DNA from: Pelomyxa schiedti | Taxonomy: Eukaryota; Protista; Evosea | Direction of reading: 5' to 3' | NCBI GenBank assembly: GCA_020536535.1 | Contig: JAHLWZ010000807.1 | Coordinates: forward strand, 1 to 64,000 | Length of the DNA: 64,000 nt | Part shown: positions 5,427 to 13,764 of the stretch, in pieces | How positions within the stretch are numbered: position 1 is the stretch's first letter | Layout: every line of letters begins with the position of its first letter | The notes under the pieces: model-generated | The model's input: only the letters and a program-made list of their open reading frames with translations | Told to the model about the DNA's origin: nothing | Database searches by the model: none | Position numbers and translations under genes: made by a program

Positions 5427-7958
5427 ATGTGGCGCTCAGCGAGCGTGAGAAGGGATGCGCCACCGAAAGCACACACGAAACCATTCTTCGTGCTGATGGG
5501 AGATGTGGGATCAGGGAAATCGACCCTTTGCGAGAAACTCACCGGCCGGACTGGTCTCAGCTCCGACTCCGCCGAATCATTCACAAAGGAGTCCAAGATT
5601 TTTCTTTCTGTCTCTCGAAAGCTGGTTAATAACCAAACATACACGACAAAAAAAAAAACCAAACGATAACGTCCCTAATTCCCGAAGCTTGGCCTCATTC
5701 CTTTTTTTTTATCCCCCAAGGTTGGTGCAGTTGAACGACGATACTGGATCGCCGACACACCAGGTCTCAATTCAATGAAAGGCCGTGTTGATCATGCACT
5801 GAATGTGCTTGGAGCGATGAGATTCAAGCCAGTGACGTGCCTGCTCATGGTTTGCTCCCTCAAGGACAGACTCGATGGTTTGGCAAAGGCACTTGATGAC
5901 CTTGTTACTCCATTCATCGAAGAGTTCGGGAACAATATTGCCGTGATTGTCACTAAGTCTGACTTGTGTCAAACTCTCGCAGTACATGAGATAACCGGTG
6001 TTGCACTGAATCTGGGCCTCTGTAACGTTATGGTCACGAGCAAAGGCACAACAAATGCGGAACTGCTAGCATTCTTACAAAAACTAGAAGGAATCACACC
6101 AATTGACGTAACCATTGCACCCGAGAACTTGGTGTCATACTTCAACTTGACGCCTCCTAACTTGAGAATGCGAGCCGTTTACAACAAGTACGTGGCGCAC
6201 TATAAGAATTTGGCCGAGTCAGGCACACAACAGATGAACACTTTGCAAGGAGATGACAAACGGGACTTCGCGTTTTCGTTCAAAGCAATGATGTATGATC
6301 TCATTCCGAAGTTTCAGGCCCAACTTTCTGAGGAGCTGGGAGACAGCGAAGCAAGCCTCCTTTTCTGTGGTGAAATAAAGAAAGAGTTCAAACGTAAGCT
6401 GCTCGAAATCCGCAACCACTGCAAAGAGGAACTGTACGTGAACCACAATTCTCAATTCAGACAGTGCCCTTACTGTGGAAATATTTGGGTCCTCGTTGAA
6501 GGTTCCAAAGGAAAAACTGTTTGTGGGAATAGACCCTTAACGGCAGAAACTTGGAGGCCTTTCAATGTTTTTGATTTCGATATCAAAAAGCTTTTAAAAC
6601 TAAATCTTACAGGACCCAACTGGGCAGCAAGTACAACCACAACTAGGAGTTGCCGGTTCACCGATGCACAGATAGAGAATTACCTGTCAGATCCCAAAAC
6701 TCCAGCAGAAACGGCGAGGGCTATGAGAGCGTTGCGCACCATCATCACAAAAACGAGCCAAGACTCTGTGAACCAACACATTTCTGCACTCGACCCAACA
6801 ACAAAAAGTGCATTGAGGAATCTGTGCCGGCAATATGCTTCTCGTCATTCTCAGTCCCGGCCTTCTCGCTTACTCAATCGCTTCTTTCCCCCAACAGAAG
6901 AGGACATGTTCGAGACCAACGAACTGAAACTATGCTTTGAATTCACAATTGCGCCGTTCTTTGAACGAACAACAGGAGGATCAAACCCAGAACTTACTAA
7001 GCCCTGTGGAAGAACCATTGCATGGAAGGACATGGCTCCTGTTCCACCGCCATCTGACTGGGCCTCGCAATCGGAAAACCGTATGACAACTGTTGATATC
7101 CAGGACTCACCAATTGACACCAGCCTTCATCGTCATCTCAAAAGCAAGATTACCGCAGAGGTAAATGTCGCCGTCGACCCGCGTGTCGCGGCCGCTTTTG
7201 GAGCACTTAAAACTATGAGAAGATGGAGCCAGAGCGACCAGTGCGTGATCAAAGTTCGCGACGTTATAAGTGGGCAGTTTTGCTTCCCAGTACCTGAAGG
7301 AGGACCAGAAATTCCACTGAGAATTTTGATTGAGACCAATCCAAAATTCAAGGACCCAAGAGTGGAACTTGTAGTGAAACATGCAAGGGGCTGGAGTGGT
7401 CTAGCTGACGACGAGATTCGAGTTATTTCAGGCTTCACTGCCAAATTTTTTCCCACACTAACGCCGGATATCATGGGTTATCTCCTGCAATCGCTCACCA
7501 AGTGCCCTGCAATGCCTGGCAAGGTCTACAGTGTAAGCAACCACCGAGACACAGAAAACCGAAATACCCAGTGCCTGAAGGGCAGGTACATCATTTGGCC
7601 AGACTTTACAGCTTGTAGCCGGAGCTTCCCGTCAATGCGGCTCTTCAACCTGAGCACCCCAACAACACTGTATGAAATTGACCAAGGCTCAGGGGTCGAC
7701 ATCGACCCAGTCTCTGTCCGGAAGTTCGAGGACCTTACAGTCTTAATTCCCAACACTGTGTTCCAGGTTGTCGACATCGCTTGGGGATGTGAAGCGAGCT
7801 ATGACACAGTGCACCTCAGGGAGGTTCCTAGGGGAGCAGATCTACTGGGCATGATGGAGTGCACAACTTGTGAAGCTGAAGTGGAGGGACCCTGTTCTGA
7901 AACTAGCCAATCTCCCGTGGCATACATGCCGACCAGTGCCATCAAAGGTAACCCATAG
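5427..7958 (+). CDS. Paralog A of a tandem GIMAP/IRG-like GTPase family. It has a P-loop GTPase domain, a Cys-rich zinc-ribbon-like motif and a C-terminal ADP-ribosyltransferase (ART)-like domain. Exon 1 runs from 5427 to about 5597-5624 and exon 2 from about 5721 to 7958.
   Basis: G1 is 'FFVLMGDVGSGKSTLCEKLTG', G3 is 'IADTPGLNS' and G4 is 'IVTKSDL'. A 'CPYCGN..VCGN' motif follows. The C-terminus has 'KFEDLTVLIPNTVFQV', which resembles the vertebrate ecto-ART 'EEVLIPPFETFQV' block. The stop is TAG at 7956-7958. Confidence 0.6.
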
Positions 7959-8065
7959 CGTGACACACACCTCGCCAGTACATAGCTCGCTTCCCTTTCT
8001 TTGAATCCCCAAGTTGATCCAAATAATGAACGATTTAAATTAATTAAAATCGGGTTGAAAGGGCA

Positions 8066-11383: not shown

Positions 11384-13764
11384 ATGAGAAGGGTACCAAC
11401 GGTCCCGCCGAAGGCACCGTTTTTCGTGCTAATGGGCGACGTAGGCTCCGGGAAGTCAACGTTGGTCGAAAAACTCACTGGGTTGACTGGTCTAAGCTCA
11501 CGTCAAAGCATTACGTTCACATTGGACTCCAAGGTTCAGCACCCTTTCTTTTTGTTTTTTTCCTAACCGATGTGTTTCAGGTTTTTATTGTTGACCAAGT
11601 GTGCTGCATCGCCGACACACCAGGGCTGAATTCTATGAAAGGCCGTATTGATCACGCACTGAATGTGCTTGGAGCGATGAGATTCAAACCATTGACGTGC
11701 CTGCTCATGGTTTGCTCCCTCAAGGACAGACTCGATGGTTTGGCACAGGCCGTCAGTGACCTCGTCACTCCGTTCATTGAAGAGTTTGGGAACAACATTG
11801 CGGCCATTGTGACGAAGAACGATATCGTACCTACGATCACGCCTGAGGAAATCCGCACAACACTTGGGGAGCTGGGAGTGGAGAGAGTGATGGTAACGAA
11901 CAAAACCACAACAAAGGCGGAGCTGGTTGCCTTCCTGCAAACCCTTCAGGGAATCCCTCCAATTGATGTCACTATTGCCCCTGCTCAGTTGGTTTCCTAC
12001 TTTAAACTGGCCCCTCCCAACCTGAGGATGCGAGCCGTTTACAACAAATACGTGGCGCACTATAAGAAGCTGGCTGAAACGGGCACACAACGGATGAACT
12101 CATTGCAAGGAGATGACAAACGTGATTTCGCTTTTTCGTTCAAGGCATTCATGTATGATCTCATTCCACAGTATCAGGACCAACTGAACCTGGAATTGGG
12201 AGAATGTGAGGGAAGCCTCCTTTTCTGTGGAGAGATGAAGAAAGAGTTCAAACGACAACTGTTGGAAATCAGAAATCAATGCAAGGAGGAACTCTACCTT
12301 TCCTCCAACTCACAGTTCAGGAAGTGCCCTCACTGTGGAAATGTTTGGGTACTGGTTGAAGGTTGTACAGGAAATACTGTATGTGGAAATCGGCCGCTAG
12401 CTGCTGACGTCTGGCGCCCATTCAGCGTATTTGAGTGGGACGTCAATGCCCTCTCCACTCCGGAGTACAACTGGCCAACAAGCCCTGCCACCACAAGAAC
12501 CCACGCCTGCCGATTCACGAGCGCACAGGTCGCACAGTACTTAGATCATATCAGCGCACCAGAAAAAAGACAAGCAATGATTTTCTTGAACACCCTCTTC
12601 ACAAATACAAGTCAACCAAATCAAGACAATGTCAACCAACAGATAGCTCTACTTGCAGCAGAAACGAAGAGAGAGTTGGAAAGGATGAGCCGTGAGCACA
12701 TTTCTCGGCAGGAAGAAGACTTCAGCCGGGCGTATCGCATACTCTGCCCTCCAAAGGAGGCAGAGATCTTCAGCATCAACCAGCTAAAACTTTGCTTTGA
12801 ATACACCCTTGCCCGTTTCTTTTCACACGAAACTGCAGGGCGCAGACCAGAACTCCCGAAGCCTTGTGGAAGAACCATTTCATGGAAGAACATGGCTCCT
12901 GTGCCCCCACCACCCGAGTGGACAAAACAGTTGGAACACATGGAGAGAACTGTTGATGTGCAGGACTCTACAGTTGACCTCAACCTTCACCAGCATCTCA
13001 GCAGCAAAAGCACGCCACAAGTAGCTGTTGTTGCCGACCCATGCATTACAGAAGCTTTTGACGCTCTGAAAACCATGCGAAAATGGAGCCAGAGTGACAC
13101 TTGCGTTGTGAAGGTTCGCGACATGGCTGATGCTGGCAAGTTCCTCTTCCCACTCCCTGAAAGACCAGCTACCCCTCTTACAAGTGTGCTTGCCAGCAAT
13201 CCCAAGTTCAATGACCCCACTGTGAAAAGTGTGGTGGCCAACAACAGGGAGTGGAATGGCCTCGCGGATGACGAAATTGGACTTGTTGCGTTGTTCGCAT
13301 CTGGCCTGCTTTCTGATAATCTGCACAAGGCATTGGTGTACAGAGAACCAACAGCAGACAACCTTGAAATCGCAAGTCACCTTCTTCAGGTGCTCAATAA
13401 GTGTCCAGCAAAGCCTGGGAAAGTGTACCGGGGAGTAGAACTCCACCAGGCCGCCTCACGTTACGTGCCTGGCAAGTGTGTGATTCAAGATTTTTTTTGT
13501 ACTTGCACCAGGGATTCCCGTATTGTTGAGCAGTATGCAAACACCAGTGGGTCTGTAATGGGGCCTAGGACACTTTTTGAAATTGATCAATTCTCTGGGA
13601 TTGACATCCAGTGCATGGCAGCTCATAGGCCACAAAGCACTCTCTTGACACCAAACACAGTTTTCCAGGTATTAAGTGTGGAACGCGAGAGGAAACTGGA
13701 CAAAATACACCTAAAAGAGGTTCATGGAGATGATCTTCTACTCATCATGGAGCACTCCACCTAG
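11384..13764 (+). CDS. Paralog C of the GIMAP/IRG-like GTPase family with a C-terminal ART-like domain. Exon 1 is 11384-11533, the intron is 11534-11580 (GTTCAG..CAG) and exon 2 is 11581-13764.
   Basis: G1 is 'FFVLMGDVGSGKSTLVEKLTG', G3 is 'IADTPGLNS' and G4 is 'IVTKNDI'. 'CPHCGNVWVLVEG..VCGN' follows. The C-terminus has 'KVYRGVEL' (R-motif-like), 'FFCTCTRDS' and 'PQSTLLTPNTVFQV'. Confidence 0.65.

Follow-up and report, generated by a model that had tools for sequence, protein, structure and literature searches.

A GTPase-ADP-ribosyltransferase family of Pelomyxa schiedti and a tandem three-gene locus of probably non-catalytic members

The anaerobic amoeba Pelomyxa schiedti possesses three paralogous genes, here named A, B and C, which lie head to tail on the + strand within positions 5427-13764 of a 64,000-nucleotide stretch of contig JAHLWZ010000807.1 (the window, by which the whole of this stretch is meant). 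Their products are labelled in GenBank as hypothetical proteins (Pelo_10992, Pelo_10993 and Pelo_10994, respectively). The interpretation put forward here, which is held to be probable, is that A, B and C are members of a family specific to the Pelomyxa lineage, in which a GTPase is joined to an ADP-ribosyltransferase (ART) domain, and that the copies at this locus are catalytically dead derivatives, most likely serving as non-enzymatic regulators, adaptors or decoys. The family has at least seven paralogs (Pelo_10992-10994, 4083, 11848, 12938 and 12939). A tandem of three such paralogs had been described in an earlier note on this DNA, and it was recovered at the place given there, with spliced products that match the GenBank proteins:

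5427..7958, + strand: gene A (Pelo_10992, 811 amino acids), with exon 1 at 5427-5624, an intron at 5625-5720 and exon 2 at 5721-7958, from the spliced translation
8066..11301, + strand: gene B (Pelo_10993, 949 amino acids), with exons at 8066-8212 and 8263-~10291 followed by seven short exons, from exact mapping of the GenBank protein
11384..13764, + strand: gene C (Pelo_10994, 777 amino acids), with exon 1 at 11384-11533, an intron at 11534-11580 and exon 2 at 11581-13764, from the spliced translation

By profile comparison, the C-terminal domain of the family is homologous to the R-S-ExE mono-ADP-ribosyltransferases, which include the vertebrate ARTC/ecto-ARTs (PF01129) and the toxins Tre1 (6DRE), Vis (4XZJ) and XopAI, and the homology extends over the whole length of the domain. 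The earlier note had made this assignment from motif resemblance, and it holds at the level of the family. Three paralogs from outside the window pass the Pfam ART model (PF01129, cut-off 22.3 bits), namely Pelo_4083 (44.4 bits), Pelo_12939 (46.2 bits) and Pelo_11848 (40.0 bits); C and A score 20.8 and 15.4 bits and B has no match. A profile built from the C-terminal part of five paralogs and compared with the PDB found Tre1 (6DRE_B) over the whole domain with an E-value of 3.3e-9 and Vis with 3e-4, and phmmer aligned C itself with Tre1 (6dre_B) at E=0.024. When 1.84 billion representatives were searched exhaustively with a profile, 2222 relatives emerged at E<=1e-3, all on the same core of ~165 residues, and 46 of the 47 multidomain relatives that were scanned proved to be Pfam ART. 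Of the relatives that have a name, the nearest come from Amoeba proteus (transcripts) and a diatom (a protein), the remainder being metagenomic, and leucine-rich repeat, ubiquitin-like, WW, Hint, NHL and ankyrin domains were seen as other partners of these ARTs. In the family consensus, the YRG, S-x-S and E-x-E-[TV]-L-L-x-P motifs of the known R-S-ExE enzymes recur. The family differs from the ecto-ARTs and the toxins in its setting, as the Pelomyxa domain sits at the C-terminus behind a GTPase in a large protein, which is neither a secreted or GPI-anchored (glycosylphosphatidylinositol-anchored) ectoenzyme nor a secreted toxin. A further difference from vertebrate and bacterial ARTs is that the catalytic Glu is lacking in the window copies, and the closest relatives are those of Amoeba proteus, the diatom and the metagenomes.

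To avoid circularity, a second profile was built from 146 outgroup ART domains with the Pelomyxa family left out. It recognised the domain in C and A and had no match in B, and a tblastn comparison of gene B with the ART domains of the paralogs detected no ART remnant in any frame. The '[LI][TI]PNTVFQV' block, to which the earlier note had drawn attention, is present in A and C, with nothing comparable in B. The two domains and their altered catalytic motifs are located as follows:

7470..7874, + strand: degenerate ART domain of A, residues 650-784 (outgroup profile 81 bits, column comparison)
7518-7535, 7602-7622 and 7728-7769, + strand: catalytic motifs of A, with the Arg replaced by Ser (GKVYSV), the Ser of STS replaced by Ala (DFTACSR) and ExE replaced by E-D-L, respectively
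13219..13746, + strand: degenerate ART domain of C, residues 597-772 (outgroup profile 110 bits, column comparison)
13417-13434, 13489-13512 and 13630-13671, + strand: catalytic motifs of C, with the Arg kept (GKVYRG), STS replaced by C-T-C-T and ExE replaced by P-Q-S, respectively

The catalytic positions were compared column by column, with A, C and the paralogs aligned to the profile of the 146 outgroup domains. The Arg of YRG, present in 98% of these relatives, is kept in C and is Ser in A, and the Gly that follows it (91%) is kept in C and is Val in A. The Ser of S-x-S (94%) has become Thr in C and Ala in A. The first Glu of ExE (94%) is Pro in C and is retained in A, and for the catalytic Glu, found in 99% of the relatives, C has Ser and A has Leu. 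All these residues are kept in Pelo_4083, 12938, 12939 and 11848 and in two metagenomic fragments of the family, so that the other Pelomyxa paralogs have the full catalytic set. C is further altered at conserved Tyr, Asn and Trp positions; A is without the whole upstream helix that carries the conserved Y..N positions, and 12 residues are deleted from its ART domain. Many structural positions survive in both proteins, among them the L-L-x-P motif and columns of Pro, Gly, Phe and Ile. The 'VYRG' that had been reported for A and C is thus correct for C, and A reads VYSV. A C-terminal tail of the form '[FY][LM]P[AT]S.[IV]KG.P' is common to A (7917-7955), Pelo_4083, Pelo_12939 and Pelo_11848, whereas C lacks it.

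The R-S-ExE residues are needed for arginine-specific transfer, and the mammalian ART3 and ART4, which deviate from them, are inactive (PMC2576468). By the rule that holds in this clade, and by the example of ART3 and ART4, the loss of these residues predicts that A and C are non-catalytic, and the two are unlikely to be working transferases. ART3 and ART4 are likewise paralogs within an active ART family, with the fold kept, non-conservative changes in R-S-ExE and undetectable activity (PMC2576468). They differ in being single-domain GPI-anchored surface proteins, whereas in Pelomyxa the dead domain shares its protein with a G domain that is apparently functional. The earlier note had suggested a nucleotide-gated switch with a potential protein- or nucleic-acid-modifying effector, and on this reading A and C would be active, GTP-gated ADP-ribosyltransferases. 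Active enzymes are quite unlikely with the catalytic Glu of the relatives and of all other paralogs replaced in both proteins, the upstream Glu turned to Pro in C, the Arg, Ser and Y..N helix gone from A, both proteins below the Pfam ART cut-off and ART3 and ART4 inactive with comparable substitutions (PMC2576468), even though the ART homology is solid, C has kept the VYRG Arg and has replaced the Ser conservatively by Thr, much of the structural core survives in A and C, and nonsynonymous differences per site (pN) are below synonymous ones (pS) in the ART domain. The logic of a switch plus an effector, which had been proposed for the locus, does not apply to it with the catalytic Glu gone in A and C and the ART domain gone in B, and it therefore fits the paralogs elsewhere and not the present locus.

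The N-terminal end of the three proteins is a G domain, followed in the model of C by a helical stalk:

5478..6107, + strand: G domain of A, with G1 at 5499-5522, G3 at 5754-5765 and G4 at 5952-5963 (motifs read, Pfam)
8111..8649, + strand: G domain of B, with G1 at 8132-8155, G3 at 8296-8307 and G4 at 8494-8505 (motifs read, Pfam)
11414..11985, + strand: G domain of C, with G1 at 11435-11458, G3 at 11614-11625 and G4 at 11812-11823 (motifs, AlphaFold2, Foldseek, PDB profile)
11986..12300, + strand: predicted stalk of C, three long helices, residues ~195-288 (AlphaFold2)

The GxxGSGKST, DTPGL and TK[SN]D motifs reported earlier for the three paralogs were confirmed by direct reading. A and C share the G1 sequence GDVGSGKS, for which B has GDAGSGKS; G4 reads TKSD in A as against TKND in the other two, and the DTPG of G3 is common to the three proteins. 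These nucleotide-binding motifs are therefore intact throughout, and they are generic to TRAFAC GTPases. On profile and model evidence the G domain is that of a TRAFAC GTPase with the GIMAP/AIG1 proteins as its nearest known relatives, membership in GIMAP/AIG1 itself not being established. In Pfam, A scores 27.2 bits with RsgA_GTPase, 22.1 with MMR_HSR1 and 21.6 with AIG1 (PF04548); B and C reach 13.9 and 17.7 bits with AIG1, so that all three are below its 27-bit gathering cut-off, and the MMR_HSR1 cut-off of 21.9 is just attained by the window proteins (22.1-23.3 bits). A PDB profile search with the G domains of nine family members gave GIMAP4 at the top (E=3.5e-6) and Der next (2.2e-5), with FeoB, Toc34, Era, GIMAP7, septin-3 and Irgb10 all between 3e-4 and 3e-3, the match to Irgb10 (3e-3) covering the P-loop region only.

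The AlphaFold2 model of C, made from an 11-sequence family alignment, shows a canonical G fold of six strands and five helices and then three long helices (residues 195-224, 227-255 and 260-288). The predicted local distance difference test (pLDDT), averaged over blocks of ten residues, is mostly 63-89 across residues ~10-290, with a dip to 48 at residues 41-50, and is 68-82 for the stalk helices. Foldseek comparison of the G-domain model with the PDB was led by GIMAP7, GIMAP1 and GIMAP4 (E 1e-6 to 2e-5); GIMAP7, 1, 4, 5 and 2 are all near the top (1e-6 to 9e-5), and NFeoB, Rab/Rho, Era, atlastin and IRG proteins have similar values. The description 'GIMAP/IRG-like' can thus be kept in so far as GIMAP is nearest by profile and by fold, with the qualifications that the proteins are below the AIG1 cut-off and that Der and FeoB are about as close. 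The IRG part of the label finds no support, since no IIGP/IRG model is among the Pfam matches of the three window proteins at E<=1, and Irgb6 and IIGP1 are low-ranked Foldseek matches with template modelling (TM) scores of 0.27-0.28.

In the GIMAP/AIG1 proteins, among them the AIG1 family that is expanded in the related amoeba Entamoeba, long helices likewise come after the G domain, and tandem expansions are again seen. These proteins differ in having neither a zinc motif nor an enzymatic effector domain, and the window proteins remain below the AIG1 gathering score. The IRG (p47) GTPases comprise GKS effector and GMS regulator paralogs. They too are tandem, fast-diverging paralogs of which some are thought to regulate others, and so provide an analogy for dead and intact copies; there is no relationship at the level of the sequence family, and the GKS/GMS difference lies in the P-loop and not in an appended enzyme.

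Between the stalk and the ART domain lies a region with four Cys residues, placed as follows:

6465..7019, + strand: four-Cys motif of A (CPYC 6465-6476, the Cys of VCGN within 6519-6533 and the Cys of PCGRTI within 7002-7019)
9007..9129, + strand: four-Cys motif of B with the helical insert deleted (CPYC, AACHS, PCEITI)
12325..12879, + strand: four-Cys motif of C with helical insert (CPHC 12325-12336, VCGN within 12379-12393, PCGRTI within 12862-12879)

The four Cys are invariant among seven aligned sequences, B and outgroups included (C299, C302, C318 and C479 in the numbering of C). They are laid out as one CxxC, a spacer of 15 residues, the Cys of 'xCG' and then the Cys of 'CGxxIxWxxM', the last two being single. 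The gap to the fourth Cys is 16 residues in B, 160 in A and C and 43-137 in the outgroups. In this gap A and C have a helical insert of ~155 residues; the outgroups have a short one and B has lost it. An extra Cys of the family, in 'EGC', is Ser in A. In the AlphaFold2 model of C, short strands are placed at the four Cys sites (residues 296-298, 305-307, 315-317 and 482-484), and C has sub-threshold matches to the Desulfoferrodoxin_N and rubredoxin-like FeS4 knuckle models (E=1.4e-3 and 7e-3). None of the zinc-ribbon Pfam models was matched at threshold by the family proteins scanned. The region is compatible with a small metal-binding knuckle domain, metal binding being a prediction from sequence and model. 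As regards the 'zinc-ribbon-like' motif described in the earlier note, the four candidate ligands are invariant, although with one CxxC and two lone Cys this is not the classical ribbon of two knuckles; the pattern 'CP[YH]CGN..VCGN' applies to all three proteins in its CP[YH]C part and to A and C only in its VCGN part, B having AACHS.

In gene B, Lys/Ser-rich repeats follow the fourth Cys in place of the linker and the ART domain, and these are succeeded by a tail of many exons:

9148..10290, + strand: Lys/Ser-rich low-complexity region of B with KVDAG-type repeats (repeat families D6 and D8, translation)
10347..11301, + strand: multi-exon C-terminal tail of B, residues 727-949 (GenBank exon chain)

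The tail has no match in Pfam (E<=10), among PDB sequences (below E=1) or in NCBIfam. PADLOC applied to full-length B gave weak P-loop matches only (LeoBC, E>=1e-5), which were dismissed as uninformative. By eye, the stretch 'IFYFTGTV ... LLLADD ... IIAIVDAVQSEH' of the tail bears a putative resemblance to a caspase-like fold in which the catalytic His and Cys are replaced.

The N-terminal halves of A, B and C are under purifying selection. The ratio of nonsynonymous to synonymous substitution rates (dN/dS) is 0.23-0.34 in the G domain and 0.13-0.23 in the stalk for all pairs. For B and C the G domain gives a dN/dS of 0.34 at a dS of 0.33, and for A and C the dS is 0.92; B and C are thus the younger pair, and yet B is the copy without any ART. 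Families of 300-nucleotide repeats with 74-89% identity at the DNA level, far above chance, span the N-terminal halves of the three genes and show that the tandem triplication is real.

These values bear on the possibility of simple decay, in which A, B and C would be duplicates without a function of their own and on the way to becoming pseudogenes. Such decay would account for the loss of the effector end in three independent ways, the 12-residue deletion in the ART domain of A, the loss of its canonical splice donor with a 9-residue insertion in the G domain, the absence of the conserved C-terminal tail from C and the repeats of B, which resemble filler. It is nevertheless considered unlikely, given that uninterrupted open reading frames of 727-817 codons run across the three genes, that all G motifs are intact, that dN/dS stands at 0.13-0.34 in the N-terminal half for every pair, and that the four Cys are kept even in B. 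Three different effector losses together with constrained G domains point therefore to a birth-and-death array of catalytically dead derivatives, which is the reading preferred here.

The spliced translation of gene A is identical to Pelo_10992, its intron having GT..AG borders as read from the sequence, and the spliced product of gene C matches Pelo_10994 with 100% identity and 100% coverage. Gene A is without the AAG/GT donor that is found in B and C and uses instead a CTG/GT 15 nucleotides downstream (5600-5720); because of this, it has nine extra residues (LSVSRKLVG) between switch I/G2 and the DTPG of G3. The N-terminal part of gene B matches Pelo_10993. An alternative with an uninterrupted reading frame would end at 10344, the span in the earlier note ended within the 5′ flank of C, and the GenBank model reaches 11298; the end given above (11301) is the end of the last exon with an assumed stop codon added. 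A and C have one intron each per ~2.4 kb and the tail of B has seven within <1 kb, the genome mean in P. schiedti being 7.43 introns per gene (PMC8887013). Going by this intron density, it is suggested that the tail of B was captured from a different gene, and the single intron of A and C hints that the core gene was a recent or retro-derived acquisition.

The cluster is bracketed by a direct repeat of 51 nucleotides:

5353..5403, + strand: upstream copy of the 51-nucleotide direct repeat, 92% identical to the downstream copy
13851..13901, + strand: downstream copy, the two together bracketing the three-gene cluster

The repeat (ATTGTCGCTCAGGATCGGCGGTCTGGTGTTTTTTTTATTCCGCCAAGTAAA) contains a GGCGG...CCGCC inverted pair and has two copies only in the window, against 0 expected by chance. 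An origin from a tRNA gene or a mobile element was considered, and the window has no tRNA genes and no more than these two copies. Upstream of the cluster, at 4000-4139, is a microsatellite array of the CTCTCACG/CTCTCGCG type. The flanking genes encode an M28 peptidase fragment (14733-15575, - strand), an actin exon (24780-25679, + strand) and a Sel1-repeat protein (52575-53582, + strand). Other signalling NTPase genes lie within 20-25 kb of the cluster, these being an Apaf-1-like STAND NTPase gene (29722-33680, + strand), with an APAF-1 helical domain (APAF1_C) and then WD40 repeats, and a Roco GTPase gene (35018-37524, - strand) with Roc and COR-A domains. Bacterial contamination was ruled out by the spliceosomal introns, the nearby actin gene and the match of the proteins to P. 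schiedti GenBank entries, and the flanking genes give the contig an ordinary eukaryotic context, so that it is not bacterial.

The N-terminal module of G domain, stalk and four-Cys motif (~440 amino acids) is rare, with six proteins found outside Pelomyxa and none of these with an ART domain. One belongs to the acoel Symsagittifera roscoffensis (XP_063727498) and the others are on metagenomic contigs (L002, L003), one of which is 9 Mb long. Among such ART-less module proteins (P0008-P0011, P0177), G4 is THMD and not TKxD, one member has two G domains, and the distribution is very patchy. The fusion of this GTPase and four-Cys module to an ART domain was found in Pelomyxa and in two short metagenomic fragments only. 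A homology search with the family and 17 distant ART fragments returned only the N-terminal family, with one new member, and the search with ART sequences alone returned one protein.

Among the 150 best ART relatives there is one other protein in which a GTPase is joined to an ART domain, a metagenomic protein of 926 amino acids (P0018) on a JGI contig of 2872 bp. It has a Dynamin_N domain at residues 146-278 (E=9e-17), a hydrophobic segment and an intact R-S-ExE ART domain of the same sub-clade at residues 797-914, and before the latter a 'K.RD..RG.F.FP' / 'RGKF.LP' element as is found before the ART domain of the Pelomyxa proteins. Like the Pelomyxa family it thus has an N-terminal GTPase and a C-terminal ART with R, S and ExE intact; it differs in the GTPase family (Dynamin_N), in its transmembrane segment and in having no four-Cys motif, and it is an independent fusion event. 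The Pseudomonas toxins ExoS and ExoT likewise combine, in one polypeptide, a module directed at small GTPases with an R-S-E ART, but they have a RhoGAP domain instead of a GTPase and are secreted by bacteria. Full-text searches of the literature, including the comparative-genomics papers likeliest to mention it, yielded no description of a GTPase-ART fusion, and the P. schiedti genome paper contains no mention of ADP-ribosylation or GTPases. The GTPase-ART fusion proposed in the earlier note, which knew of none described in eukaryotes, is real, and the architecture is apparently undescribed and built from known parts. As to other taxa, one metagenomic dynamin-ART protein exists, and the architecture of the Pelomyxa family itself is so far confined to Pelomyxa and the two metagenomic fragments.

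The ancestral protein of the family would have consisted of a TRAFAC G domain with GIMAP/AIG1 as nearest relatives, a three-helix stalk, a four-Cys knuckle split by a helical insert, a linker and an R-S-ExE ART domain of the ARTC/PF01129 type. The intact paralogs are predicted to be arginine-directed ADP-ribosyltransferases because Arg, Ser and Glu-x-Glu are kept, and to be cytosolic because their N-terminus has no signal peptide evident by eye; their transferase activity or assembly may be governed by the GTPase. At the present locus the effector end has been lost in three ways, with the Arg, Ser, catalytic Glu and helix lost in A, Ser changed to Thr and ExE to P-x-S in C, and the insert and the whole ART domain lost in B. 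GTP binding would be retained by the dead copies, which would use the G domain and stalk to associate among themselves or with active paralogs and would then serve as regulators, as adaptors or as decoys binding the substrate or NAD. They may operate in a system of the conflict type, for example one that wards off or manages intracellular bacteria or other invaders, and this would fit the tandem birth-and-death pattern, the toxin-type effector and the nearby signalling NTPase genes, none of these being proof.

A number of points weigh against this interpretation. The inactivity of A and C is read from motif loss, and C retains the Arg with a Thr at the Ser position. Constraint on the ART region is weakly supported because dS between A and C is saturated (2.0) there, with pN at 0.39 and pS at 0.70. 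The structural check suggested in the earlier note gave no usable ART model, and it is the profile searches that place the domain in the ART family: the ART region has a pLDDT of ~30 in the full-length model of C and a mean of 43.7 when the C-terminal 272 amino acids are modelled in isolation (6 sequences), and the best Foldseek match of this poor model in the PDB is XopAI (E=0.12), then ExoS and ExoT, none of them significant. The three genes are known as predictions from sequence, and the 3′ exon chain of gene B is a GenBank gene prediction. It is by analogy that the dead copies are cast as regulators or decoys and placed in a conflict or immune system.

The Arg and Ser of R-S-ExE are generally needed for NAD binding. 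This is of relevance to a further possibility, in which the dead ART domain is a sensor of a ligand (NAD+, ADP-ribose or an ADP-ribosylated target) that feeds into a GIMAP-like GTPase scaffold, and so is a reader and not a writer. Fold-defining positions are indeed conserved where catalytic residues are lost, and the G domain is nearest to the GIMAPs, which are membrane scaffolds (PMC3417536); with the Y..N helix, the Arg and the Ser all missing from A, and with nothing to separate a sensor from a regulator or decoy, this account is thought very unlikely.

A more far-reaching proposal, made by analogy and regarded as improbable, is that the family could form a eukaryotic, cell-autonomous, GTP-gated effector system for arginine ADP-ribosylation, in which the intact paralogs would be writers and the dead copies their regulators or decoys, and which would control the division of intracellular prokaryotes. 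Tre1 is an antibacterial toxin that ADP-ribosylates FtsZ. Pelomyxa is described as packed with bacterial and archaeal endosymbionts (PMC10579272). Since Tre1 is the nearest solved relative of the ART domain and the host is so packed, the system could act on the division of symbionts, prey or pathogens. If this were true, writers and regulators controlling prokaryotes would constitute a new type of immune or symbiont-control effector in protists.

Both building blocks of the family are well known, one being a TRAFAC GTPase of the immunity-associated type and the other an R-S-ExE ART, and it is their union in one polypeptide that is apparently undescribed. The practical impact is limited, as the family is small and lineage-restricted and the organism is hard to work with, and the window copies are most likely enzyme-dead, so that the family is of greater interest than the locus. 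The locus itself illustrates the decay or re-use of an effector, with three neighbours, three losses of the enzyme and a GTPase under selection throughout. The existence of a second, independent fusion in the dynamin-ART protein suggests that the combination of GTPase and ART is a useful one. Should the intact paralogs prove to be ADP-ribosyltransferases regulated by GTP, the large or immune GTPases, otherwise known to act by scaffolding or membrane remodelling, would gain a new output, and an amoeba would once more have recruited a toxin-type domain.

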